Shown in pieces: positions 6,021 through 58,387 of a stretch of DNA of 64,000 nucleotides. The stretch lies in assembly GCA_035263845.1 (NCBI GenBank), contig DATFQY010000005.1:6770-70769 (forward strand). Reading direction: 5' to 3'. Numbering within the stretch: the stretch's first letter is position 1; every line of letters begins with the position of its first letter. The DNA comes from Thermoanaerobaculia bacterium (GTDB lineage: Bacteria > Acidobacteriota > Thermoanaerobaculia > UBA5066 > Gp7-AA6). The notes beneath the pieces are model-generated. The model saw nothing but the letters and a program-made list of their open reading frames with translations. It was not told the DNA's origin and made no database searches. The position numbers and the translations under genes are program-made.

Positions 6021-6898
6021 GGGCCGTCGCTTCGGCGCTCGCTGCCTCGCCCTCGAGGGTCGGAGCGTTCCTCGAGCTGACCAAGCCCCGGATCACGGCT
6101 CTCGTGCTCGTCACGGCCGCCGTCGGCTACGCGATCGGCGCCGGGAGCGGACTCGATCCCCTCGTCTTCCTCGCGCTGATGGCCGGGACCGCGATGGTCG
6201 CCGGGGGCGCGTCGGCCCTGAACCAGTACTCCGAGCGCGAGGCGGACGCGCGGATGGAGCGCACCCGCCGCCGACCGCTCCCGTCGGGGCGCGTTTCCCC
6301 GGGCGAGGCGCTCGCCTTCGGCCTCGCCATTTCCGGCGCGGGCCTCGTCGTTCTCGCGACGATCAACCCGCTGACGGCGATCCTGGGAGCGATCGCGCTG
6401 ACGAGCTACGCGCTTCTCTACACGCCGTTGAAGCGGATTACGTCCCTCTGCACGGTCGTGGGCGCGGTCCCGGGGGCGATCCCGCCGCTGATGGGCTGGG
6501 CGGCCGCGCGCGGCAGCCTCTCGGCCGGAGCGTGGGCCCTCTTCGGGGTCCTCTTCCTCTGGCAGCTCCCTCACTTCCTGGCCATCGGCTGGATCTACCG
6601 CGAGGACTACGCGCGCGGCGGGTTCCCGATGCTGACGGTGCTCGACCCCGACGGCGCCTCGACGGGGCGCCAGATGATGCTCTACTCGGCCGCGCTCGTA
6701 CCGGTGACGCTGCTGGCCGGCGCCCTGGCGTCGGCCGGCCCCGGGTACCTGTGGAGCGCGCTCGCGCTGGGAGCGCTCTTTTTCGCCGGCTCGGCGAGGT
6801 TCTTCCGGCAGAGGTCGCTGGCCTCGGCTCGGCTGGTGTTTCTCGTTTCGATCCTCTACCTGCCGGTCGTCCTCGGCCTCATGGTGTTCGACCGATGA
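6017..6898 (+). CDS. ctaB: Protoheme IX farnesyltransferase (heme O synthase, CtaB/CyoE).
   Basis: UbiA-family motifs (ELTKPRIT, NQYSEREADARMERTRRRPLPSG). The putative TTG start at 6017 overlaps the ctaA stop. The exact start is uncertain. Confidence 0.85.
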   Translation: MRAVASALAASPSRVGAFLELTKPRITALVLVTAAVGYAIGAGSGLDPLVFLALMAGTAMVAGGASALNQYSEREADARMERTRRRPLPSGRVSPGEALAFGLAISGAGLVVLATINPLTAILGAIALTSYALLYTPLKRITSLCTVVGAVPGAIPPLMGWAAARGSLSAGAWALFGVLFLWQLPHFLAIGWIYREDYARGGFPMLTVLDPDGASTGRQMMLYSAALVPVTLLAGALASAGPGYLWSALALGALFFAGSARFFRQRSLASARLVFLVSILYLPVVLGLMVFDR

Positions 6899-7026
6899 GC
6901 GAGACGCCCGCACCGACCGCCGCCGAGCGGATCGCCAGATGGAGGACGCTGCTCCTCCTGCTCCTGATCATGGGAGGGCTCTTCTTCGGGTCGATCCTCT
7001 TCATCCTTTCCCGGGCGCCGAAGTAA
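6895..7026 (+). CDS. Small single-TM protein (44 aa) inside the cox operon, possibly a small oxidase subunit or assembly factor.
   Basis: The ATG overlaps the ctaB stop (ATGA). Sequence MSETPAPTAAERIARWRTLLLLLLIMGGLFFGSILFILSRAPK has one hydrophobic helix. Confidence 0.4.
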   Translation: MSETPAPTAAERIARWRTLLLLLLIMGGLFFGSILFILSRAPK

Positions 7027-7039
7027 CAAGGAGAAACCG

Positions 7040-7330
7040 ATGACGGAGTCCGGTCACAAGTCCCCGAACTACATGGCCATCTTCTGGTGGCTCGCCGGGT
7101 TCACCGCCGTCGAGGTCGCGTACTCCTCGATCCTGCCGCACAGCCAGAAGGCCCTGTTGATCATCGGGCTCGTCGGCTTCGCGGCGATCAAGGCGACGCT
7201 CGTGGCGCTGTACTTCATGCACTTGAGATTCGAGCGCAAGAGCCTGGGGATCATCGTCGGCTCGACGCTCATCCTGGGCGTGATCCTCGTCTCCGTCGGA
7301 ATGGCGGAGACGTGGCTGCCACGCCCCTGA
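7040..7330 (+). CDS. Cytochrome c oxidase subunit IV (prokaryotic CtaF/CoxD family).
   Basis: 96 aa with three TM helices. The ALYFMHL segment is typical of bacterial subunit IV. It lies between ctaB and coxC. Confidence 0.7.
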   Translation: MTESGHKSPNYMAIFWWLAGFTAVEVAYSSILPHSQKALLIIGLVGFAAIKATLVALYFMHLRFERKSLGIIVGSTLILGVILVSVGMAETWLPRP

Positions 7331-7343
7331 CGAAGGAGTCCTG

Positions 7344-7946
7344 ATGGAAGCGATCGCGGTCCCCCACGGGCACGGGCACGAGGAGGAATACACCACGACG
7401 GGAATCCCCCACGACAAGATGGGGATGTGGGTCTTCCTCTGCTCCGAGGTCATGTTCTTCACCGGGCTGATCGGGTCCTACATCGTCCTGCGGTTCGCGA
7501 CGCCGCTCTGGCCGCCCCCGGCGTCGGTCCTGAACATCCCGCTGACGGCGATGAACACCTTCATCCTGATCTGCTCCTCCGTCACGATGGTTCAGTCGCT
7601 CGCCGCGATCTCCCGCAACGACACGCGGAAGATGAAGCTCTACCTCTGCCTGACGCTGATGTTCGGGGCGATCTTCCTGTCGATCCAGGGGGTCGAGTAC
7701 TGGAAGCTCGTCCACGAGGGGTTCAACCCGCACGTCTCGCTCTTCGGGTCCGTCTTCTTCACGACAACGGGGTTCCACGGGTTCCACGTCTTCTGCGGCG
7801 TCGTCTGCATGGCGTTCGTCACCGGGAAGGCCTTCCTCGGCAAGTACACGCAGGCGAGCCATCAGGGAATCGAGACGCTGGGCCTCTACTGGCACTTCGT
7901 GGACCTGGTGTGGATCGTGCTTTTTACGATCATTTACCTGATCTGA
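7344..7946 (+). CDS. coxC: Cytochrome c oxidase subunit III.
   Basis: 200 aa with a conserved subunit III C-terminus (FHGFHV...LYWHFVDLVWIVLF). Confidence 0.9.
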   Translation: MEAIAVPHGHGHEEEYTTTGIPHDKMGMWVFLCSEVMFFTGLIGSYIVLRFATPLWPPPASVLNIPLTAMNTFILICSSVTMVQSLAAISRNDTRKMKLYLCLTLMFGAIFLSIQGVEYWKLVHEGFNPHVSLFGSVFFTTTGFHGFHVFCGVVCMAFVTGKAFLGKYTQASHQGIETLGLYWHFVDLVWIVLFTIIYLI

Positions 7947-49187: not shown

Positions 49188-50036
49188 ATGTCCTCCGACT
49201 ACCTCGAGGGCCGCGGCCGTGTCCGCGTGGACGCCGCGGGAATCGCGATCGAGGGAGTCTCGGTCGCCGGCCGGGAGTCGTTCTACAAGGTCCCCTCCTT
49301 CCATGTCCTCCTGGAGTTCGGCCGCGCTCCTGAAGACACCGTTTCCTACTCGACGGTCTGCCTCACGCACGGCCACCTCGACCACGCCGCCGGCCTCGCC
49401 CACCACGCCTCGCGCCGGCGGCTCGACGGAATGCCCGCCGCACGCGTCTTCGCACCCGAGGAAGCGGTCCCGGACCTGGAAGGGTGGCTGGCCTTCTCCC
49501 AGAGGCTCGAGAACGTGGACTACCGGCTGCACCTGACTCCGGCGTCGCCCGGCGCGACCTTCCGGATGCGAAACGACCTGGAGCTGAAGGTCCTGCCGGG
49601 GAGCCACCGCGTTCCCACGGTCGGCTACCTCTTCTCCGAGATCAAGCACAAGCTCAAGGACGAGTTCCTCGACCTGACCGGGGACAGGATCGCTGCGCTG
49701 CGCGCCGGGGGCACCGAAGTCACGCGACGGGAGGAGATCCCTCTCCTCGCCTACACCGGCGATTGCGGCCCGGGGATCTTCGACGCCGCTCCGGAGCTCT
49801 TCATGGCCCGGGTCCTTCTGATCGAGTGCTCCTTCGTCCTTCCCGAGGACCGCGACCGCGCCCGGACCTACGCCCACCTTCACCTCCAGGACTTCCTCGA
49901 CCGCGCCGCGGATTTCCGAAACGAGGCGATCGTCCTGACCCACTTCTCCCAGCGCTACGGAGTCGAAGAGATCCGCCAAACGCTTGACGCGGTTTCTGAG
50001 GTATTCGCTAGACGGATAGTCCCATTTCTCCCTTAG
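49188..50036 (+). CDS. MBL-fold metallo-hydrolase (RNase Z-like).
   Basis: Motif THGHLDH, 282 aa. The start is only 35 bp from the divergent queA. Confidence 0.75.
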   Translation: MSSDYLEGRGRVRVDAAGIAIEGVSVAGRESFYKVPSFHVLLEFGRAPEDTVSYSTVCLTHGHLDHAAGLAHHASRRRLDGMPAARVFAPEEAVPDLEGWLAFSQRLENVDYRLHLTPASPGATFRMRNDLELKVLPGSHRVPTVGYLFSEIKHKLKDEFLDLTGDRIAALRAGGTEVTRREEIPLLAYTGDCGPGIFDAAPELFMARVLLIECSFVLPEDRDRARTYAHLHLQDFLDRAADFRNEAIVLTHFSQRYGVEEIRQTLDAVSEVFARRIVPFLP

Positions 50037-50141
50037 TCAGCGGAGAGAGGGATGCCAAAATGATGCATCCGCATCTGACAGACACGCGTCGAGCACCACT
50101 AGTCTCACCAGAACTCAGTTGCTATCTCGAGGAGGTGCTCG

Positions 50142-50465
50142 ATGAAGCGGGGTTTCTTTTTGGTCGTCACGGTTGTTGCTTTCATTGTAATGAGCTATCC
50201 AAGTGTGGCCTTCCCGGATCAACTCGACAGCGCAGCGGCTGGAGGATGGGTTACCTACTACGACGAGAACTGGAATCTGGTTGGCGAGTGGTATAAGCCG
50301 TGTCAGGGCCAAGCATCGCGATGGGGCGTTGTCGGAGTCTACGCCTCTATCGATGAGTACTACAGCTGCGAAGGAGGACCGGAACCGCCGTCGTGCACTC
50401 CTTGGATCGTCTACGATGCCCCCTCCGGAAACCTGCCGAATCCATCGTTGGCCTGTTATCAATAG
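50142..50465 (+). CDS. Small secreted Cys-rich, aromatic-rich protein (107 aa, 4 Cys).
   Basis: RBS GAGGAGG, then the signal peptide MKRGFFLVVTVVAFIVMSYPSVA. The mature part is about 85 aa with C53, C76, C84, C105 and many W/Y. No homology is recognised. Confidence 0.5.
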   Translation: MKRGFFLVVTVVAFIVMSYPSVAFPDQLDSAAAGGWVTYYDENWNLVGEWYKPCQGQASRWGVVGVYASIDEYYSCEGGPEPPSCTPWIVYDAPSGNLPNPSLACYQ

Positions 50466-50477
50466 TCTCCGCCGACT

Positions 50478-51510
50478 ATGCCGAAAAGTCTTTATTCTGG
50501 CGATGGCGATCGCCTGCCTTTCGGATGACTCCGCAGGCCAGAGAACGTCTCCCGTTCAGGAGAAGGTGACGGTCGAACGAGTTGTAATAACAGGTCATGT
50601 CATTGACAGATTTGCGAAACCGATTCATGGGCTGACCGTTGATGATTTTGTTCTCCTGGTCGACGGGATTCCGACCCCAATCGAGTCCGTCGATTGGATT
50701 GAGACCGTCCAGTTCTTGGAGACGCGAACGCCGGTCGTTGGAGCTGATAGATCCGGTTCTGCTTCGACAGAACTCGGATTACCCGGTAGTCCGAGGCTAA
50801 CGGTCCTACTCTTTCAGTGGGAGATCTCCGGTCAAAAAGACACCGGCTTCGTCAGAATGATGCGCCAAGCTAAGTCCCTGATCGAAAGCTCCGGTCCGGA
50901 TGATTTGTTCGCCGTCCTGGGCTTTGGCTCCAGCCTTCGGCTGCTTCAGGACTTTACGAACAGCCATGAAACCATTGAACGCGCGATTCTCAACGTCCGA
51001 AGCCTTGGTTGGAAGAGCCCGGTTCCAGAATCAGGACGACCAGCTCTTACAACGGGAATCACCGACTGCGGGCGCACGGATTCGATCGAGGCTGGTCTGA
51101 CTTGTATCGGCAAGGGACTTGATCGCCTGCCTGGACCAAAGTCCCTTCTCTTCTTTGGCTGGAGTGCTGCCACGAATGAACACACTTGGCGCGCGCGGGC
51201 TCCTTCGGTGATCGAGTCGGTGACGAAGGCTGAAACGTCTGTCTTCGTCCTTGATGTCAGTGATGGCAGGCGCTACGGTAAGCGGCTGCTCCTAGAGAGC
51301 CTCAAGACACTCGCTTTTGAAACAGGAGGCCTCTATCAGACTACGTACGATTTCCCGGACCTGGCCCGGAATCGAGTCCAGCGGACCCTCGACGGCTACT
51401 ACGAATTGACCTTCCGGAACCAGCCAACGAGCCGAGGATGGCATCGCGTTGACGTTGAGCTGGCACGGCGGCTCGGAACCGCGCTCTTTCGGCGGTGGTT
51501 TCAGGACTGA
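50478..51510 (+). CDS. VWFA-related Acidobacterial domain protein (TIGR03436-like): an N-terminal beta-sandwich plus a VWA domain, with an apparent frameshift between the signal peptide and the body.
   Basis: The body starts at ATG 50503 and reads VTVERVVITGHVIDRFAKPIHGLTVDDFVLLVDGIPTPIESV, then a VWA-like core. ATG 50478 in another frame encodes MPKSL. Removing one T from the TTT at 50491-50493 yields MPKSLILAMAIAC, a lipoprotein signal peptide. Confidence 0.55.
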
Positions 51511-51902
51511 GGGTCTCGCGGCAGGAGGTTCTCGGGCTTCCCGATGCGGAGGATCCGGCCCTCCAGGACGTAGCCCAGACCGTTCATTCGCAGGATCACG
51601 TCCAGGGCCTGGTCCCAGGGAACGTCGTGCAGGGAGACCGTGACGGAGCCGCGGACGTCCGGATCGACGGCGATGTTGACCTTCGTCAGCTCGGCGAACG
51701 TCCGCAGGACGTCTTTCAAGTCGGCGTCTTTCAGGTCGAGCGAGATTGGCTCGCCGGAGTACGGCGATTGGGAATCCGCCGGCTTCGCAGGCGCGGCCTT
51801 CGTTTTCGCCGGCCGCTTGCGGGGGGACTCCGCCGCCGAAGAAGACGCAACGAACACGCAAAGAAGAAGCGCTGCCAGGAAGCCCTCGAACCGCCTTCTC
51901 AT
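51501..51902 (-). CDS. Secreted protein consisting of a single STN (secretin/TonB short N-terminal) domain, 133 aa.
   Basis: The signal peptide MRRRFEGFLAALLLCVFVASSSAA is followed by an STN-like block ISLDLKDADLKDVLRTFAELTKVNIAVDPDVRGSVTVSLHDVPWDQALDVILRMNGLGYVLEGRILRI. Confidence 0.55.
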   Translation of the reverse strand: MRRRFEGFLAALLLCVFVASSSAAESPRKRPAKTKAAPAKPADSQSPYSGEPISLDLKDADLKDVLRTFAELTKVNIAVDPDVRGSVTVSLHDVPWDQALDVILRMNGLGYVLEGRILRIGKPENLLPRDPQS

Positions 51903-51931
51903 GCGGAAAGGATAAACCTCGGCAGGAGAGA

Positions 51932-52552
51932 ATGCCGGTCGTGCGACCTCTCTCGCCGGCCAGGGTCCTGCCGTGGGTTCTCGTCGCCGCCCTGGGCGCG
52001 GCGACGCTGTTTCTCTTGTCGCGGGCGTTCCTTCCCTGGGGCGAGAGCCGAAGTGTGTCGGCGGCGCCGGTCGTCGCGGCGGTCCGGCACATCGCGCAGT
52101 TCTCGACCGTGGAGATCCAGGTCTCCGACGTCGTCCGCTACGAGGAAGCGAAACACTTCCTGGTCTTCGACTTTCCCAAGAGCGCCACGCTTCGGCTGAG
52201 AGGCCGCGTGCTGGGAGGCTTCGACCTGGAGAACCGGGCATTCAAAGTCCTTCCCGACGCCGACCATCGCATCGTCCGGGTGAAGCTCCCTCAGCCGCGG
52301 ATCCTCGCCGTGGATCCGCGCTTCGAGTGGTTCGACGAGAAGAGCGGCTGGATCAACCCGATCACACCGGCCGACCGCACCCGCTGGATGCTCTGGGCGC
52401 GGGGCGAACTCGCTCGCGCGGCGAAGCAGTCCGGGATCGAGCAGAAAGCGCAGGATCACGCCCGGGAGCTCATCACCTCGGCGGCCGACGGCTTCGGGTG
52501 GAAAGCGGACATTGCTTTTGAAAGAACCGTAGCGGCAGTTTCTTCGGAGTGA
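51932..52552 (+). CDS. Membrane-anchored hypothetical protein (206 aa).
   Basis: An N-terminal TM helix, then a soluble domain. It is divergent from the STN gene across a 29 bp spacer. Confidence 0.5.
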   Translation: MPVVRPLSPARVLPWVLVAALGAATLFLLSRAFLPWGESRSVSAAPVVAAVRHIAQFSTVEIQVSDVVRYEEAKHFLVFDFPKSATLRLRGRVLGGFDLENRAFKVLPDADHRIVRVKLPQPRILAVDPRFEWFDEKSGWINPITPADRTRWMLWARGELARAAKQSGIEQKAQDHARELITSAADGFGWKADIAFERTVAAVSSE

Positions 52553-52564
52553 GCGCCACCGGGC

Positions 52565-52609
52565 GGGAGGGGCAAGCCCCTCCCCTACGGCACGACAAGA
52601 GCTTTTTTT
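52565..52609. terminator. GC-rich hairpin in a convergent intergenic region; possible bidirectional terminator.
   Basis: The perfect 9 bp stem GGGAGGGGC-aa-GCCCCTCCC is followed 17 nt later by T7, which abuts the stop of the minus-strand gene. Confidence 0.3.
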
Positions 52610-53076
52610 CAGCGTCCCGGTTCGACTCGCTCGGCGTCCGCCTGGCGCTCTTTCATGGCCCAGAGCCCGAGGTGGCTGCGCCAGGCGGAGGCGGAGGCGG
52701 GGGAGAGCACGAACTCGTGGTCCGGGCCGTCGGAGCGCGAGATCCGCAGGACCTCCAGGCCGGTCAGGAGGCGCCCGGAGGCGAGCTTGACGCCCGTCAC
52801 GATCTTCTGGATGTCCGAGGTCGGAAGCTGCACGGTTTCCCCGAAGAGACCCGAGAACTGCAGCTCTTCGTCCTTCAAACCGAGCACGCCCGGCACGCGG
52901 CGATAGCGCCCGGCCACCAGATCGGCCCGCGTCAGGAGCTTGTAGGTCTCGCCTTCGCGCCCGATGGTGGCGCCCGCCAGCCGGTCCTGCGCGCTCTTCA
53001 ACAGGTAGCGCGGGACGAGCACCAGCGCCAGGACTGCCGCGACGGCAACCGCGAGGCCCCACAAGAGCAGCGTCAA
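52609..53076 (-). CDS. Small membrane-anchored protein (155 aa); last gene of the MoxR/VWA operon.
   Basis: The TTG start overlaps the VWA gene stop (TTGA). An N-terminal TM helix is followed by a soluble beta-rich domain. Confidence 0.45.
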   Translation of the reverse strand: MTLLLWGLAVAVAAVLALVLVPRYLLKSAQDRLAGATIGREGETYKLLTRADLVAGRYRRVPGVLGLKDEELQFSGLFGETVQLPTSDIQKIVTGVKLASGRLLTGLEVLRISRSDGPDHEFVLSPASASAWRSHLGLWAMKERQADAERVEPGR

Positions 53077-54167
53077 TGCAGGAACTTCTTCCGGTTCCGG
53101 ATGTAATCGGTAAACAGGAACTCGGCAAGATTGTACGGCGAGGCGTAGTACGCGCGCCCGCGGTTGATCTTGGTCAGCTTGTCCACGAAGTCCACGAGGT
53201 AGCTGTCGGTGGCGATCATGAAAGTCGTGATCGTGATCCCGTCGCGCCGGCAGGCGTCGGCTTCTTCCAGCGTCCGGTTGACGATCTTGAGATCCAGCCC
53301 GAAGGGGTTCTTGTAGAGGCGCCCGTGGTCCCAGATCGCCGAGGGCTTTCCGTCGGTGATGAGGAAGACCTGCTTGTTGGGATTCTTCTTGTGCTGGAGG
53401 ATCTTCCTGGCGAGCGCCAGCCCGGCCTTCGTGTTGGTGTGGAAGGGGCCGACCTGGGTCTTCGAGATCTCGGAAATCGGGACCCGCTTCGCGTCGTCGC
53501 CGAAGAGCAGCACCTCGATCGAGTCCTTCGGATACTTGGACTGGATGAGCTCGACTAAGGCCAGCGCGACCTTCTTGGCCGGGGTGAATCGGTCCTCGCC
53601 GTAGAGGATCATCGAGTGGGAGATGTCGATGGCGAGGACGGTCGCGCAGGAGGTCAGGTGCTCCTCCTCGTGGACCTCGAAGTCCTCGGGCTGGAGCGAG
53701 ATCTCTTCGACGTCGCGGCGGACGGCGTTGCCGATCGTGCGCACGCCGTCGATGGCCGTGGGGTTGTCGCCGAACTCGTAGGGGCGCGTCTCGGGAAGGA
53801 GCTCGCCTCCGGAGCCGGCCCGGGGGATCGCGTGGTAGCCGGCGCCCGACTTGGACAACGAGCTGAAGATCTCCTCCAGCGCGGAGCGGCGGATCTGCCT
53901 CTCGCCGGCGGCCGTCAGCGAGAGCTGGCCGTTCCTTTCTTCCACGACCTCGTTTATCTGGAGGGCCTTCGCGAACTCTTCGAGGTCGATCGAGGGGTCG
54001 ATGATGCCGCGCTCTTGCAGGTACTTCATCCACTTGAGCGCTTCCTCGACATCGCCCCCGGTCTGGAGGACGAGTTGGAGGAAGAGCTTCACGAGCTCCT
54101 GGTAGGTCAGGAGAGCGCGGAGGAGATCGACCGGGTAATCGGAGTAGCGGTACCGCACCGGGGCCAA
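53073..54167 (-). CDS. VWA-domain protein, partner of the MoxR-like ATPase.
   Basis: MIDAS motif DISHS with downstream T and D residues. Only the 3' part of the 600-codon track ORF is coding. The start is inferred as TTG at 54167 (MAPVRYRYS), 2 nt after the HpcH stop. Confidence 0.75.
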   Translation of the reverse strand: MAPVRYRYSDYPVDLLRALLTYQELVKLFLQLVLQTGGDVEEALKWMKYLQERGIIDPSIDLEEFAKALQINEVVEERNGQLSLTAAGERQIRRSALEEIFSSLSKSGAGYHAIPRAGSGGELLPETRPYEFGDNPTAIDGVRTIGNAVRRDVEEISLQPEDFEVHEEEHLTSCATVLAIDISHSMILYGEDRFTPAKKVALALVELIQSKYPKDSIEVLLFGDDAKRVPISEISKTQVGPFHTNTKAGLALARKILQHKKNPNKQVFLITDGKPSAIWDHGRLYKNPFGLDLKIVNRTLEEADACRRDGITITTFMIATDSYLVDFVDKLTKINRGRAYYASPYNLAEFLFTDYIRNRKKFLH

Positions 54168-54169
54168 TT

Positions 54170-54901
54170 CTACGGCTTCAAGGCTCCTCGCCACGCGCGC
54201 GCGGCCTCGAGCACGAGCGTGCGGTCGCTCATGGTGAAGAAGGAGTAGCCCAGCTCCCGCAGCGAGGGGATCTGGTCGGCCCGACCGAGCATGATTCCGG
54301 CCGCCTTGCCGGAGGTCTTCGCCTGGCCGGCGATCCGCGCGAGCGCGTCGCGGTAGCTCGGGTGCGTGTACTGCCCCGGCACGCCGAGCGCCTGCGTCAG
54401 GTCGTTGGGGCCGACGTAAAGGACGTCGAGCCCGGGCTCCGAGGAGATCTGCGACAGCTCCGCCAGGGCGCCACCGGTTTCGATCTGGACCACGATCGTG
54501 GTCGCCTCGTTGGCCTCCCGGACCACGCGATCCAGCGGGATCGTCGCGTAGCGGTTCGCGCGTGCGCCTCCGAGGCCCCGTTTCCCGGCCGGCGGGTACT
54601 TCGCCATCTCGATCGCGCTCCGGACCGTCGCGCAGCTGTCGCCGCGCGGGAACAGGATCCCTGCCGCGCCGGCGTCGAGGCTTCGTCCGACTTCGGCGGC
54701 CGTACAGGAGGGGACTCGGACGACCGACGGCAGTCCGGCGCCGTCGGCGGCGATGACCATGGCGGCGATGGACTCGATGTTGAAGAACCCGTGCTCGGAA
54801 TCCAGGACGACGAAATCGAACTCGGCGATGGAAAGAAGCTCTGCGATGCCGGCCGTCGGCCAGGTCAGGAAGCATCCCAGCAGCGGCTCGCGCCGCAGCA
54901 C
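54170..54901 (-). CDS. HpcH/HpaI-family aldolase (2-keto-3-deoxy sugar acid / citrate lyase beta-like).
   Basis: TIM-barrel aldolase motifs (DSEHG, KYPPAGKRGLG). 243 aa. Confidence 0.8.
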   Translation of the reverse strand: MLRREPLLGCFLTWPTAGIAELLSIAEFDFVVLDSEHGFFNIESIAAMVIAADGAGLPSVVRVPSCTAAEVGRSLDAGAAGILFPRGDSCATVRSAIEMAKYPPAGKRGLGGARANRYATIPLDRVVREANEATTIVVQIETGGALAELSQISSEPGLDVLYVGPNDLTQALGVPGQYTHPSYRDALARIAGQAKTSGKAAGIMLGRADQIPSLRELGYSFFTMSDRTLVLEAARAWRGALKP

Positions 54902-54950
54902 CCGCTCCCGGAACGACCGGAGGACGTCCGTTCCTTCTCTCAGACGTTTC

Positions 54951-56564
54951 TCAGTTGGTGGTTCTCGATCGCACCAGGTTGAACTTCAGCATCTCGGTGT
55001 ACGAGACCTTCGAGTCGAGGTCCTCGCGGGCGATCTTCAAGTGCTGGGTCAGGCCTTCGAGGACCAGCTCCATTCCGACGGCGCGCTCCTCGGGGGCCGC
55101 CGGGGCGAAGTGCTCCTCCACCGCCTTGCGGAGACCGGGGACGGACTCCAGCGCCGCCAGGTGCTCCTGGAAGGGAGTGTCATCGGAGAGCGTGATCTTG
55201 TTGCCGGCGGCGAACCATTCGACGATCGGCTCGTAGAGCGGATGGATCTTTTCCGGCGCCGGGTTGTTGCGAAGACGCCGGGCGGGCCCCGCCTCGTCGG
55301 AGTCCTCGGGGTCCTCGCGCCGGCGCTGCGTTGGGCGGCCGGAGTCGGGCGCCGGGAAGCGGCCGTCGAAAAGCTTCTTGACCGCCGTTCCGATCAGGCG
55401 CTTGGCCACGACCTCGGCCCCCTGCTGCTCGCCCTCGTAGACCATCTCGACTTTCCCCGTGATCGCCGGCAGGCACGCGGGCAGGTCGCAGAGGCGCGGC
55501 GCAACGGTCTTTTCGCGATGGCGCAGGCCGCGCCGCTCGAGATTGGAGACGAGGATCTCGACCGCCGAGATCGGCATCCGCGCCGAGACCCCGGAGGACT
55601 GGTCCACGAACTCGCTGCCGCGGGCGGCGAAGGCGATTTCCTCGACGAGCTCTCGGAAGAAGTCGGGCAGCTCGACCCGTGGATCTCCCTCGGCTCGCTC
55701 GACCCATGCTTCCTGAGCTGTGATCTTGGCCGCCGTCTTCACGTCGTCGGGGTAGTGGGTCAGGATCTGGGAAGAGATGCGGTCCTTCAGCGGCGTGATG
55801 ATGTTGCCGCGGTTGGTGTAGTCCTCCGGGTTGGCCGAGAAGACGAGCAGGATGTCGAGCGGGATCCGGACGGGAAAGCCGCGGATCTGCAGGTCGCGCT
55901 CCTCGAGGATGTTCAGCAGGCCCACCTGGATCCGGGGTTGTAAGTCCGGCAGCTCGTTGATCGCGAAGATGCCGCGGTTGGTCCGCGGCACGATGCCGAA
56001 GTGGATGACCTCTTCGTCCGAGTAGGAGCGCTTTTCCGTGGCCGCCTTGATGGGGTCCACGTCCCCGATGAGATCCGCGATGGTGACGTCGGGGGTGGCG
56101 AGCTTCTCCCGGTAGCGCTCCTCGCGCGGGATCCAGTCGATCGGCGCCGCGTCCCCCTTCTCGGCGAGGACACGGCGGCCGTACTTGGTGATCGGGGCAA
56201 AGGGGTCCTCGTTTAACTCGCTGCCGGCGATTGCCGGGATCTCCAAATCCAGCAGGTTGACGAGCATGCGAAGGAGCCGGGTCTTCGCCTGGCCGCGCAG
56301 CCCCAGGAGCAGGAAGTCGTGGCGCGAGAGGATCGCGTTGTGGAGCGAGGGCAGGACGGTCCGCTCGTAGCCGTGGATCCCCGCGAAGGGGTTCTCCCCG
56401 CGGGCGAGTGCCCGCCGGAGGTTCTCGCGAAGCTCCTCCTTGACGCCGCGCGGACGGTAACCGCTGGCCTTCAGCTCGCCGACTGTCGCCGCCCTGGCCA
56501 TCTCCGGTGGGTCCTCCCTGTGAGCCGCCTTACAGACTACCTGTCCGCGTTTCGAGACGTTCAA
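54951..56564 (-). CDS. MoxR-family AAA+ ATPase with a long C-terminal extension (537 aa).
   Basis: IHGYERTVLPSLHNAILSRHDFLLLGLRGQAKTRL carries a GxxGxAKT MoxR-type Walker A. A Walker B and sensor follow. The start may be the internal Met at 56501. The ATG at 56564 overlaps the redoxin gene stop. Confidence 0.7.
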   Translation of the reverse strand: MNVSKRGQVVCKAAHREDPPEMARAATVGELKASGYRPRGVKEELRENLRRALARGENPFAGIHGYERTVLPSLHNAILSRHDFLLLGLRGQAKTRLLRMLVNLLDLEIPAIAGSELNEDPFAPITKYGRRVLAEKGDAAPIDWIPREERYREKLATPDVTIADLIGDVDPIKAATEKRSYSDEEVIHFGIVPRTNRGIFAINELPDLQPRIQVGLLNILEERDLQIRGFPVRIPLDILLVFSANPEDYTNRGNIITPLKDRISSQILTHYPDDVKTAAKITAQEAWVERAEGDPRVELPDFFRELVEEIAFAARGSEFVDQSSGVSARMPISAVEILVSNLERRGLRHREKTVAPRLCDLPACLPAITGKVEMVYEGEQQGAEVVAKRLIGTAVKKLFDGRFPAPDSGRPTQRRREDPEDSDEAGPARRLRNNPAPEKIHPLYEPIVEWFAAGNKITLSDDTPFQEHLAALESVPGLRKAVEEHFAPAAPEERAVGMELVLEGLTQHLKIAREDLDSKVSYTEMLKFNLVRSRTTN

Positions 56565-57043
56565 CCCGGCTTGATCGCCGGGATCTTCTCGCCGGGCGCG
56601 AAGAGCGCCGACGCCGGCCGTCCCCCCATTTCCGAGGCGACCCCGGCCAGTTCTTCCATCTTATCCCGCTGGAATCCGACGACCGCCTCGCGGACGCGGC
56701 CGTCGGCGTCGACGAGGAAGAAGGTCGGGACGCTGTCGAGACCGAGTGTCTCCGAGGCGCTCCAGGGCTCGGGATCGTAGAGAGTCGTGATCGCGACGTT
56801 CAATTCCTCGGCGAAGCGGGCAGCGTCGTCCGGGCTGTCCTGAGAGACAGCGACGACGGAAAGCGGCCCGCCCTGCGCGCGCCGGCGGATCCGGTCGAGA
56901 AACGGCCAGGCGAACTCGCAGGTCGGGCAGGTCGTCTTGAAGAACCCGTACAGGGCGGGGTTGGCGGGAGCGGCGGCCTCCCGCCCTTCTTCGTCCCGGA
57001 GAGTGATGTGTGGGAAACGATTTCCGGGAGCGGGAAGAGCCAC
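56561..57043 (-). CDS. Thioredoxin-fold thiol-disulfide oxidoreductase (redoxin/TlpA-like).
   Basis: CxxC active site FKTTCPTCEF and a redoxin fold (SQDSPDDAARFAEE...VPTFFLVDADGRV). GTG start inferred; 160 aa. Confidence 0.7.
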   Translation of the reverse strand: MALPAPGNRFPHITLRDEEGREAAAPANPALYGFFKTTCPTCEFAWPFLDRIRRRAQGGPLSVVAVSQDSPDDAARFAEELNVAITTLYDPEPWSASETLGLDSVPTFFLVDADGRVREAVVGFQRDKMEELAGVASEMGGRPASALFAPGEKIPAIKPG

Positions 57044-57070
57044 TGCCCGATTATATTCTCCGCGCGTTCC

Positions 57071-58387
57071 GTGATCAGCCGAAGGCACTTCCTCCGCGGC
57101 GCCGCCATCGCGGCGGCTTCGGCCGCCTCGGGCGCCTGCGCGCGCCCCGCACCGGCGGGCAAGCGCAAGACTCTCCGCATCGCGCAGTGGGCCCATTACG
57201 TGCCCCGCTACGACCAGTGGTTCGACAAGGTCTTCACGAAGGAGTGGGGCGAGAAGAACCGGACCGACGTGATCGTGGACCACATCGCCGCGACCGAAGT
57301 CCCGGCGCGCGCGGCGGCCGAGGCGGCGTCCGGCAAGGGGCACGACCTCTTCCATTTCCTCTCTCCGCCCGCCGCCTACGAGCGCAACGTCCTCGACCAC
57401 GCCGACGTCGTGCGCGAGGTCGAGCGCCGGCACGGCGAGATGGTGCCGCTCGCGCGCCGGTCCACCTTCAACCCGAAAACGGGAAAGTTCTTCGCCTTCT
57501 CCGATTCCTTCGCTCCCGACCCGGGCAACTACCGGATCGACCTCTGGGCCGACGCCGGGTATCCGAAGGGACCGGACACCTGGGAGGACCTCCGGCTGGG
57601 CGGCGCTAAGATCCGGAAGAGGTCCGGCCACCCCGTCGGGATCGGGTTCTCGCAGGAGATGGACTCGAACATGGCGCTCCGCGCGCTGCTCTGGTCCTTC
57701 GGCGGCGCGGAACAGGACGAGCAGGGGCGGCCCGCTCTCGATTCCAAAGCGGCAATCGAGGCCCTGAAGTTCGCGCGGGCCCTCTGGCGCGAGGCGGAAA
57801 CGGCCGAGGTCTTCACCTGGGACCCCTCCTCCAACAACCGCGCGATGATCTCCGGGCGCTCTTCCTTCGTCCAGAACGCGATCTCGGTGACGCGCTCCGC
57901 CGAGAAGGACAACCCCGAGACGGCAGCGAAGATCGGTCTGACTCCCGCCCTGGCGGGGCCGGTCCGCCGGATCGCGGCGGAGCACCTCATGAGCTGCTAC
58001 GGGGTGTGGAAGTTCGCCGAGAACCCGGAGGGAGCGAAGCAGTTCCTGGTGGACTTCATCGACGCCTTCCCGGCGGTCTTCCGCGAGAGCGCCTTCTACA
58101 ACCTGCCGTGCTTCCCCTCGACCGTCCCGGACGCGGCGCGTCAGCTCGCCGAGGACCCGGCAGCGCCCCCGGGGAAGTACGCGGTCCTCTCGACGGCGCT
58201 CGATTGGTCCACCAACGTCGGTTACCCCGGCTACGCCACGGCGGCGATCGACGAGGTCTTCAACACGTTCGTCATCCCGACGATGTTCGCCCGCGTGGCC
58301 CGGGACGAGACGACCCCCGAGGCGGCGGTGAAGGCCGCCCACGCCGAGATCGCCCGGATTTTCGGCAAGTGGACCCAGGCCAGTTGA
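57071..58387 (+). CDS. ABC transporter substrate-binding lipoprotein (solute-binding protein family 1) with a Tat signal.
   Basis: A twin-arginine motif ISRRHFLRGAAIAAASAASGAC includes the lipobox. A periplasmic binding fold follows. GTG start at 57071. Confidence 0.75.
   Translation: MISRRHFLRGAAIAAASAASGACARPAPAGKRKTLRIAQWAHYVPRYDQWFDKVFTKEWGEKNRTDVIVDHIAATEVPARAAAEAASGKGHDLFHFLSPPAAYERNVLDHADVVREVERRHGEMVPLARRSTFNPKTGKFFAFSDSFAPDPGNYRIDLWADAGYPKGPDTWEDLRLGGAKIRKRSGHPVGIGFSQEMDSNMALRALLWSFGGAEQDEQGRPALDSKAAIEALKFARALWREAETAEVFTWDPSSNNRAMISGRSSFVQNAISVTRSAEKDNPETAAKIGLTPALAGPVRRIAAEHLMSCYGVWKFAENPEGAKQFLVDFIDAFPAVFRESAFYNLPCFPSTVPDAARQLAEDPAAPPGKYAVLSTALDWSTNVGYPGYATAAIDEVFNTFVIPTMFARVARDETTPEAAVKAAHAEIARIFGKWTQAS

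Follow-up and report, generated by a model that had tools for sequence, protein, structure and literature searches.

The locus described here raises the question of whether an aldolase gene that is embedded between the genes of an ATPase and a VWA-domain protein reveals what the two partners act on, or whether it is a passenger of their operon. The window, i.e., the whole stretch of 64,000 nucleotides (nt) that was analysed, is part of contig DATFQY010000005.1 (assembly GCA_035263845.1). It has a high GC content of around 68%, and exact and near-exact protein matches lead to the Thermoanaerobaculia within the phylum Acidobacteriota. The initial annotation of this DNA reported five co-directional genes at 52609-57043, which encode a redoxin with a CxxC motif, an AAA+ ATPase with a Walker A motif, an HpcH aldolase, a VWA protein with a metal-ion-dependent adhesion site (MIDAS) and a protein of 155 amino acids (aa) that is anchored by a transmembrane (TM) segment. 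All five open reading frames (ORFs) are present on the minus strand, and the domain calls are borne out by Pfam, NCBIfam and the motif positions. It was suggested that the operon could be a maturation system for a metal-dependent aldolase or a novel variant of the MoxR-VWA ternary systems. The comparison of related loci points to another answer: the core appears to be a two-gene machine of ATPase and VWA protein, which is older and far more widespread than the five-gene operon, and we lean towards regarding the redoxin, the aldolase and the TM protein as accreted, co-transcribed genes. The five genes are listed in the order of their transcription:

56561..57043, minus strand: redoxin gene, 160 aa, GTG start
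54951..56501, minus strand: gene of the ChlI/MoxR-like AAA+ ATPase, 516 aa, ATG start
54170..54901, minus strand: gene of the HpcH/HpaI class II (metal-dependent) pyruvate aldolase, 243 aa, GTG start
53073..54158, minus strand: gene of the VWA/MIDAS partner, 361 aa from GTG 54158, other possible starts 54194 and TTG 54167
52609..53076, minus strand: gene of the small TM protein, 155 aa, TTG start

The conservation of the pair was followed in a survey of 80 loci with full-length homologues of the ATPase (48-88% identity), which includes one genome per species and covers the Acidobacteriota, Eisenbacteria, Zixibacteria, Ignavibacteria, Bacteroidota, Rhodothermales, Planctomycetota and others; the window's six proteins were searched against these loci by tblastn. 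The ATPase and VWA genes are syntenic across phyla, which supports the suggested MoxR-VWA pairing. A VWA homologue (41-93% identical) is encoded on the same strand within 7 kb of the ATPase gene in 57 of the 80 loci, where it is either directly adjacent (<350 bp, 45 loci) or separated by 0.4-2.3 kb (12 loci), and 16 loci have no VWA homologue within at least 3 kb on either side. The VWA gene is located downstream of the ATPase gene in Acidobacteriota, Zixibacteria, Ignavibacteria and Planctomycetota, and upstream of it in most Bacteroidota. Where the VWA gene is downstream, the estimated gap between both genes often amounts to -4 to -14 nt, and this is found in several lineages outside the aldolase-bearing clade; the ancestral state appears to be a contiguous ATPase-VWA pair, whose genes apparently overlap in several lineages. 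All-versus-all clustering of the ORFs from 83 loci, which was used to look for a universal third gene, returned the ATPase and VWA clusters as the only widespread ones. One cluster spanning 23 loci, which holds the small TM protein, was rejected as an artefact, produced in high-GC DNA by alternative-frame ORFs that are rich in Arg and Pro. The ATPase family itself is large: more than 8000 word-sharing homologues were found, the best 120 of which are all at least 82% identical, and 3421 representatives (50% clustering) came out of an exhaustive search, with values below 1e-30 for 657. Full-length matches with 48-64% identity come from Eisenbacteria, Zixibacteria, Ignavibacteria, Bacteroidota, Rhodothermales and Planctomycetota, and the cultured carriers among the Bacteroidota include Olivibacter, Hymenobacter, Mucilaginibacter and Mesonia.

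The aldolase does not share this distribution. It is found between the ATPase and VWA genes in the two closest checkable relatives only; of the 57 species loci with a VWA gene nearby, 55 lack it at this position, which is the result that the initial annotation had named as a refutation of its interpretation. Loci without the embedded aldolase include other Thermoanaerobaculia with an ATPase identity of 59-64%, in which the VWA gene either follows directly after the ATPase gene (L010-L012) or different genes occupy the junction. Matches to the aldolase, the redoxin, the TM protein and an STN-domain protein encoded downstream were limited to the loci L001-L006, with an ATPase identity of at least 83%. 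The genes found at the ATPase-VWA junction elsewhere comprise a TPR-like ORF of around 140 aa (L007, L009, L013 and L014), an M1 peptidase (L014) and small toxin-antitoxin-like ORFs (L020). The junction, which unrelated genes occupy in other lineages, tolerates insertions, and the aldolase gene is, judged from these comparisons, a lineage-specific insertion at such a site. Within the aldolase-bearing clade, the wider neighbourhood, including the genes for MoaA, a solute-binding protein (SBP), QueA, Lactamase_B_2 and GlnA, is syntenic as well. Since the whole neighbourhood is syntenic and the divergence is shallow, the conserved gene order in the clade is weak evidence for functional coupling. 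Between the same genomes of the clade, identities reach 83-85% for the ATPase and 88-93% for the VWA protein, compared to 69-76% for the aldolase, 59-65% for the TM protein and 51-62% for the redoxin.

Some of the junction genes deserve a brief description. The ORF of around 140 aa, which is conserved in another group of Thermoanaerobaculia (59-61% ATPase identity), is located directly upstream of the VWA gene (L007 4205-4639, L009 7459-7896, L013 1521-1940 and the region 4708-7093 of L014); its match to TPR is weak, and its N-terminus may be RHH-like. The peptidase of L014, which also lies between the ATPase and VWA genes, is of the M1/leukotriene-A4-hydrolase type. In L020, which stems from a metagenome-assembled genome of the Bacteroidota, several small toxin-antitoxin-like ORFs are found at 6036-7486, and an ORF of 122 aa at 6557-6925 looks chimeric, with segments resembling the N-terminus of the VWA protein and the C-terminus of the ATPase. 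The L020 junction suggests a rearrangement scar.

The ATPase matches the Pfam family AAA_5 and carries the Walker A motif GLRGQAKT at 56280-56303. Its further motifs and regions are located as follows:

55941-55967, minus strand: Walker B motif FAINELPDL, residues 179-187
55821-55844, minus strand: sensor 1, VFSANPED
55776-55793, minus strand: arginine finger, PLKDRI
55575-55595, minus strand: sensor 2, SGVSARM
55248..55346, minus strand: predicted disordered linker, charged and of low complexity, around residues 386-418
54969..55247, minus strand: predicted winged-helix-like C-terminal domain, around residues 419-511

In a cross-phylum alignment of 26 sequences, GLRGQAKT, the catalytic Glu, ANPED, KDR and GVSAR vary little or not at all. 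The Walker B motif has the form hhhhN-E and not hhhhD-E: among the aligned family members, Asn182 is at least 90% conserved, Glu183 is invariant, and an Asp at position 182 was noted in P0207 only. An Asn in the Walker B motif is unusual for a presumably active AAA+ protein. Full-length members of the family consist of around 470-516 aa and share residues 1-385, which are followed by a linker that varies and by a C-terminal block that is conserved. The C-terminal extension of about 200 aa, which had been called unusually long, in fact comprises around 130 aa past the AAA+ lid and is present across the whole family. According to the structure model, it consists of a disordered linker and a winged-helix-like domain. 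The pLDDT of the linker is below 50 at residues 389-406 and stays low up to residue 418 or so, and its length and sequence vary across the family; in the aldolase-bearing clade, it is much longer (around 45 aa, RRREDPEDSDE...) and more charged than in most family members. The C-terminal domain, which is conserved family-wide, was modelled with confidence (pLDDT 92) and gave uniform winged-helix matches, and a Pfam search of this domain with relaxed thresholds returned nothing significant. A direct phmmer search of the ATPase against the PDB had no match; using the family profile, ChlI was identified as the closest solved protein (3.4e-14), and the fold appears closest to NorQ and CbbQ. The ATPase sits between the chelatase-I and MoxR groups, and the earlier label 'MoxR-like' is apt as a description of its kind and should not be read as a family assignment.

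The VWA protein matches the Pfam families VWA_2 (39.8 bits) and VWA (28.3 bits), its N-terminal 175 aa or so are helical, and it ends around 25 residues past the VWA domain. The MIDAS (DxSxS...T...D) is intact and formed by the following elements:

53613-53627, minus strand: DISHS
53421-53441, minus strand: the Thr in HTNTKAG
53340-53360, minus strand: the Asp in ITDGKPS

A Pfam search of the N-terminal half with relaxed thresholds returned nothing significant, and a direct phmmer search of the protein against the PDB found no match. VWA homologues with 88-93% identity are called at 361 aa and have the precomputed domain PF27098 (Rv0959_3rd); our own Pfam scan of the window's VWA protein did not list PF27098, so that the domain is known from these relatives.

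The proteins Rv0958 and Rv0959 of Mycobacterium tuberculosis are annotated as a possible magnesium chelatase and a conserved hypothetical VWA protein. The core pair appears to be of this Rv0958/Rv0959 type because the VWA proteins of the relatives carry PF27098 and a pair from Micromonospora matches; the assignment was made via these two. The Micromonospora ATPase P0145 (WP_387116250, 481 aa) is 46% identical over its full length, through the C-terminal domain, and its gene is followed after 3 nt by that of a 650-aa protein with PF27532 (Mb0984_helical), PF27098 (Rv0959_3rd) and VWA_2. Common to both systems are the ATPase family with the C-terminal domain and the adjacent VWA partner with Rv0959_3rd. 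However, the actinobacterial partner is around 650 aa long and possesses an extra N-terminal helical region, whereas the VWA protein of the window has 361 aa, and the actinobacterial locus examined, that of Micromonospora, encodes neither an aldolase nor a redoxin nor the TM protein. The literature on Rv0958, Rv0959 and COG4867 yielded no functional characterisation, only incidental mentions in transposon sequencing, an antigen screen, mass spectrometry after affinity purification (AP-MS) and a B12 screen. MSMEG_5512, the Rv0958 orthologue of M. smegmatis, co-purified in an AP-MS study centred on RNA polymerase and did not pull down DNA (PMC7092591). A screen for B12 resistance recovered a transposon insertion that lies 49 bp upstream of the orthologue in M. 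marinum (PMC11237697).

The systems with a described function are more distant. NorQ and NorD, a MoxR-class AAA+ protein and a VWA protein that insert non-haem iron into nitric oxide reductase, are related to the pair of the window with a sequence identity of about 19% between the ATPases. NorQ is a bare AAA+ module of around 260 aa, whereas the ATPase of the window consists of 516 aa and has N-terminal and internal elaborations, the linker and the winged-helix-like domain; it also differs in the N-E of its Walker B motif, and no nor genes are located nearby. CbbQ of the Rubisco activase CbbQ-CbbO, which is likewise of the MoxR class, is 17% identical. Its partner CbbO is a large VWA protein of around 750 aa compared to the 361 aa of the window's protein, and neither Rubisco nor carboxysomes feature in the context of the locus.

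By analogy with NorQ-NorD (PMC13036017), CbbQ-CbbO and ChlI-ChlD, the ATPase would assemble into a hexameric ring, onto which the VWA protein would dock as an adaptor. The MIDAS site of the adaptor would grip an acidic residue of a client, and ATP hydrolysis would remodel adaptor and client, for example for the insertion of a metal or cofactor or for the assembly or release of a complex. The tethered winged-helix domain would probably serve as a docking module for a partner or the client. In the shallow Thermoanaerobaculia clade, three genes were then probably accreted onto the ancestral pair: the redoxin gene upstream, the aldolase gene in between and the TM gene, whose translation is coupled to that of the VWA gene. 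For the aldolase, the most likely reading is that of a co-transcribed passenger at an insertion-tolerant junction; it is probably not a client of the ATPase/VWA machine.

Several points weigh against this explanation. The proposed mechanism is drawn entirely by analogy, as the core pair has no known client, whatever the organism; the likeness to Rv0958/Rv0959 was established indirectly, as described above; and the behaviour of the ATPase may differ from that of NorQ and CbbQ given the Asn in its Walker B motif. Furthermore, the aldolase gene sits between those of the ATPase and the VWA protein in each of the 11 contexts examined for its subfamily (L001-L005, L084, L085, L087-L089 and the window), two of which are on contigs that end before the VWA gene. 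In some relatives, e.g., in L087, it overlaps the stop of the ATPase gene by 4 nt. The aldolase is thus stably inherited together with the pair and probably expressed with it, which would fit a functional link. HpcH aldolases need divalent metals, and the characterised MoxR/VWA systems often serve metal centres.

The alternative that survives best concerns the redoxin and the small TM protein. The redoxin matches the Pfam families Redoxin (38.3 bits) and AhpC-TSA (36.3 bits), has weak similarity to ResA/DsbE/TlpA and contains the motif CPTC at 56918-56929. It is probably cytoplasmic because neither a signal peptide nor a TM segment was found. Identical gene calls of 160 aa exist in L002 and L003, and a redoxin upstream of the ATPase was found in the close clade only among the 80 loci. 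The small protein has one N-terminal TM helix (hydropathy of 2.65 over residues 1-19), which is followed by a soluble domain of around 130 aa. It matches no Pfam family, even at relaxed thresholds. Of its 609 homologues, the 120 listed share at least 58% identity with it and have no Pfam domain, and the few named ones among them are all hypothetical proteins of Thermoanaerobaculia. A phmmer search over the survey loci detected it in L001, L004 and L005 only, and it is a clade-restricted orphan. It could be argued that these accessories are integrated into the machine without the aldolase being its client: the TM protein would tether the machine to the membrane, the redoxin would hold a thiol in the client or the adaptor in its reduced state, and the aldolase would merely be co-regulated. 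The overlap of 4 nt between the VWA gene and the small gene, which is seen in the window, L001, L088, L089 and L090, is in favour of this, as is the position of the redoxin gene directly upstream of the ATPase gene in each clade member whose contig reaches far enough. However, an SLH protein sits between the VWA gene and the 155-aa gene in L087; in L084 and L085, no TM gene was seen beside that of the VWA protein. Moreover, both accessories are restricted to the clade and evolve fast (51-65% identity versus 83-93% for the core), the TM protein is without domain annotation, and the cysteines of the clade's ATPase (RLCDLPAC) are not conserved in the family; such an integration is therefore unlikely. 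The protein that follows the VWA gene in L085 (8024-9676) and L087 (8104-9756) has 550 aa and a weak match to the SLH domain.

Somewhat less probable still is the dedicated maturation module, in which the pair would load or exchange the divalent metal of the aldolase or activate it otherwise, with the redoxin and the TM protein as accessories. The aldolase belongs to the Pfam family HpcH_HpaI (PF03328; 89.7 bits versus a cutoff of 25). It was rejected as an equivalog of GarL (135.8 versus 406.75), HpaI (127.1 versus 368.8) or RhmA (90.3 versus 441), as the scores are far below the cutoffs. It aligns to the HpaI structure 4b5s at 1.3e-31, with DSEH, VVR, VQIE and GPND corresponding to LIDGEH, VVR, VQIE and GPAD of 4b5s. 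The catalytic residues of HpaI, which we take to be His45 and Arg70, and the metal-binding ones, presumably Glu149 and Asp175, occupy positions that are kept, and therefore the aldolase is probably catalytically intact and an active enzyme. It shares the fold family and the positions of the catalytic and metal-binding residues with HpaI/HpcH and GarL. However, it forms a separate subfamily from HpaI, GarL and RhmA (the best 120 clusters are all at least 67% identical), which was found in the examined contexts only inside this operon and in one clade. The order redoxin-ATPase-aldolase-VWA was seen in all contexts looked up, wherever the contig reaches far enough. The statement that this layout is not a described configuration holds, and the layout is stable within one clade. 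This strict embedding, the short gap of 2-11 nt to the VWA gene in the window, the 4-nt overlap with the ATPase gene in L087, the intact active site and the insertion of metals by the solved MoxR/VWA systems (PMC13036017) speak for a maturation module. Against it stand the wide distribution of the pair without an aldolase, which means that aldolase maturation cannot be its primary function, and the higher conservation of the pair relative to the aldolase. In addition, unrelated genes are found at the same junction in other lineages, the conservation is confined to a shallow, wholly syntenic clade, and no accelerated evolution of the ATPase and VWA sequences, which could hint at a change of function, is seen in this clade. 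HpcH/HpaI aldolases have also been produced in active form in Escherichia coli without helper proteins. With 55 of 57 loci lacking the aldolase and the accessories confined to a shallow clade, the idea of a maturation system for a metal-dependent aldolase is not upheld. A narrower version, in which the pair was co-opted in this clade alone to metallate, activate or gate the aldolase under thiol-redox control and with a membrane tether, is more doubtful again.

Two further readings have next to no probability. The vWA-MoxR ternary conflict systems, which act in defence, combine the AAA+/VWA pair with a third component (VMAP, iSTAND, FtsH or a beta-propeller) and with variable effectors fused C-terminally to the vWA, and they diversify rapidly (PMC7159879, Kaur et al. 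2020). The operon has an AAA+/VWA pair plus extra genes; however, VMAP, iSTAND, FtsH, a beta-propeller and VWA-fused effectors are all absent among its genes, the VWA protein is short, conserved and not diversifying (identities of 88-93% inside and 41-62% outside the clade), the surrounding genes are of the housekeeping kind and stable, and PADLOC found no match, so that the proposal of a novel ternary variant is effectively refuted. It is equally hard to believe that the pair serves tetrapyrrole biosynthesis as a standard motor of the Mg- or Co-chelatase I/D (or CobS/CobT) type: by profile, no solved protein is closer than ChlI, there are weak HMM matches to BchD, BchI and cobaltochelatase, and the source labels read 'magnesium chelatase', but the ATPase fails the equivalog models (TIGR02030, 22.5 bits versus 467; TIGR02031, 28.3 versus 500; TIGR02442, 17.8 versus 779), no large subunit of the BchH/ChlH/CobN type was seen among the ORFs annotated at around 37-62 kb or in the gene tables read for related loci, the family is widespread in non-phototrophs, and the C-terminal winged helix and the separate short VWA protein, which lacks the N-terminal AAA-like domain of ChlD, are unlike ChlI/ChlD.

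The gene borders required some corrections. The ATPase had been predicted to have 537 aa with a TTG start at 56564; its start is almost certainly ATG 56501, which results in 516 aa. This ATG has GGAGG/GGAG just 5' of it, the exact database protein P0001 has 516 aa, and homologues of 513-518 aa begin their alignment at its Met. Since TTG 56564 is not the start of the ATPase, the redoxin and ATPase genes are separated by 59 nt and there is no TTGA overlap between them. The ATPase-aldolase gap amounts to 49 nt, the aldolase-VWA gap to 2-11 nt, depending on whether the VWA gene starts at TTG 54167 or GTG 54158 (the 361-aa calls of the relatives fit 54158), and the VWA and small genes overlap by 4 nt (TTGA). 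The claim that all genes are translationally coupled is thus overstated, as such coupling is clear for the VWA gene and the small gene only. Among the relatives, the first three junctions vary between an overlap of 4 nt and a gap of 214 nt, and the overlap of the VWA gene with the small gene recurs. A scan of 51400-57400 for promoters and terminators found no promoter-like sites and as many terminator-like sites as expected from shuffled sequences, which is uninformative for a high-GC organism. A second copy of any of the five genes was not found in the window.

Upstream of the operon, a solute-binding-protein gene on the plus strand, which starts at around 57071 by homology with the 438-aa call of L002, diverges from the redoxin start at 57043 (minus strand). 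Because only around 27 nt separate the two starts, the promoters must lie inside coding sequence, or the transcripts must be leaderless. Just downstream of the operon, a gene with an STN/GspD-N0 domain (51501 to around 51910, minus strand) and a DUF4230 gene (51746-52552, plus strand) are located, which recur nearby in L001, L084 and L088-L090 and form separate transcription units. The GC content dips to 0.584 at 50001-52000, compared to around 0.68 elsewhere; this stretch covers the STN/GspD-N0 gene and an ORF of 435 aa without a Pfam match (50203-51510, plus strand) and may be acquired DNA.

Taken together, the locus is a member of a catalogued, uncharacterised ATPase/VWA family with a clade-specific operon decoration. 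The locus most likely does not represent a new system, be it for aldolase maturation or of the ternary MoxR-VWA kind, and is of limited importance in itself; the embedded position of the aldolase gene is a local peculiarity. The core pair, on the other hand, is very widespread and strongly conserved, occurs in cultured Bacteroidota and mycobacteria and is routinely mislabelled as 'magnesium chelatase subunit I', and it is distinctive in its tethered winged-helix-like domain and its Walker B Asn. The more interesting question is therefore the role of this widespread core pair, and the aldolase-bearing clade is at best a weak lead to its client. If the aldolase were indeed a client, it would be the first one identified for an otherwise orphan chaperone family, and naming the client of the pair would fill a real gap in the understanding of MoxR/chelatase-type chaperones.

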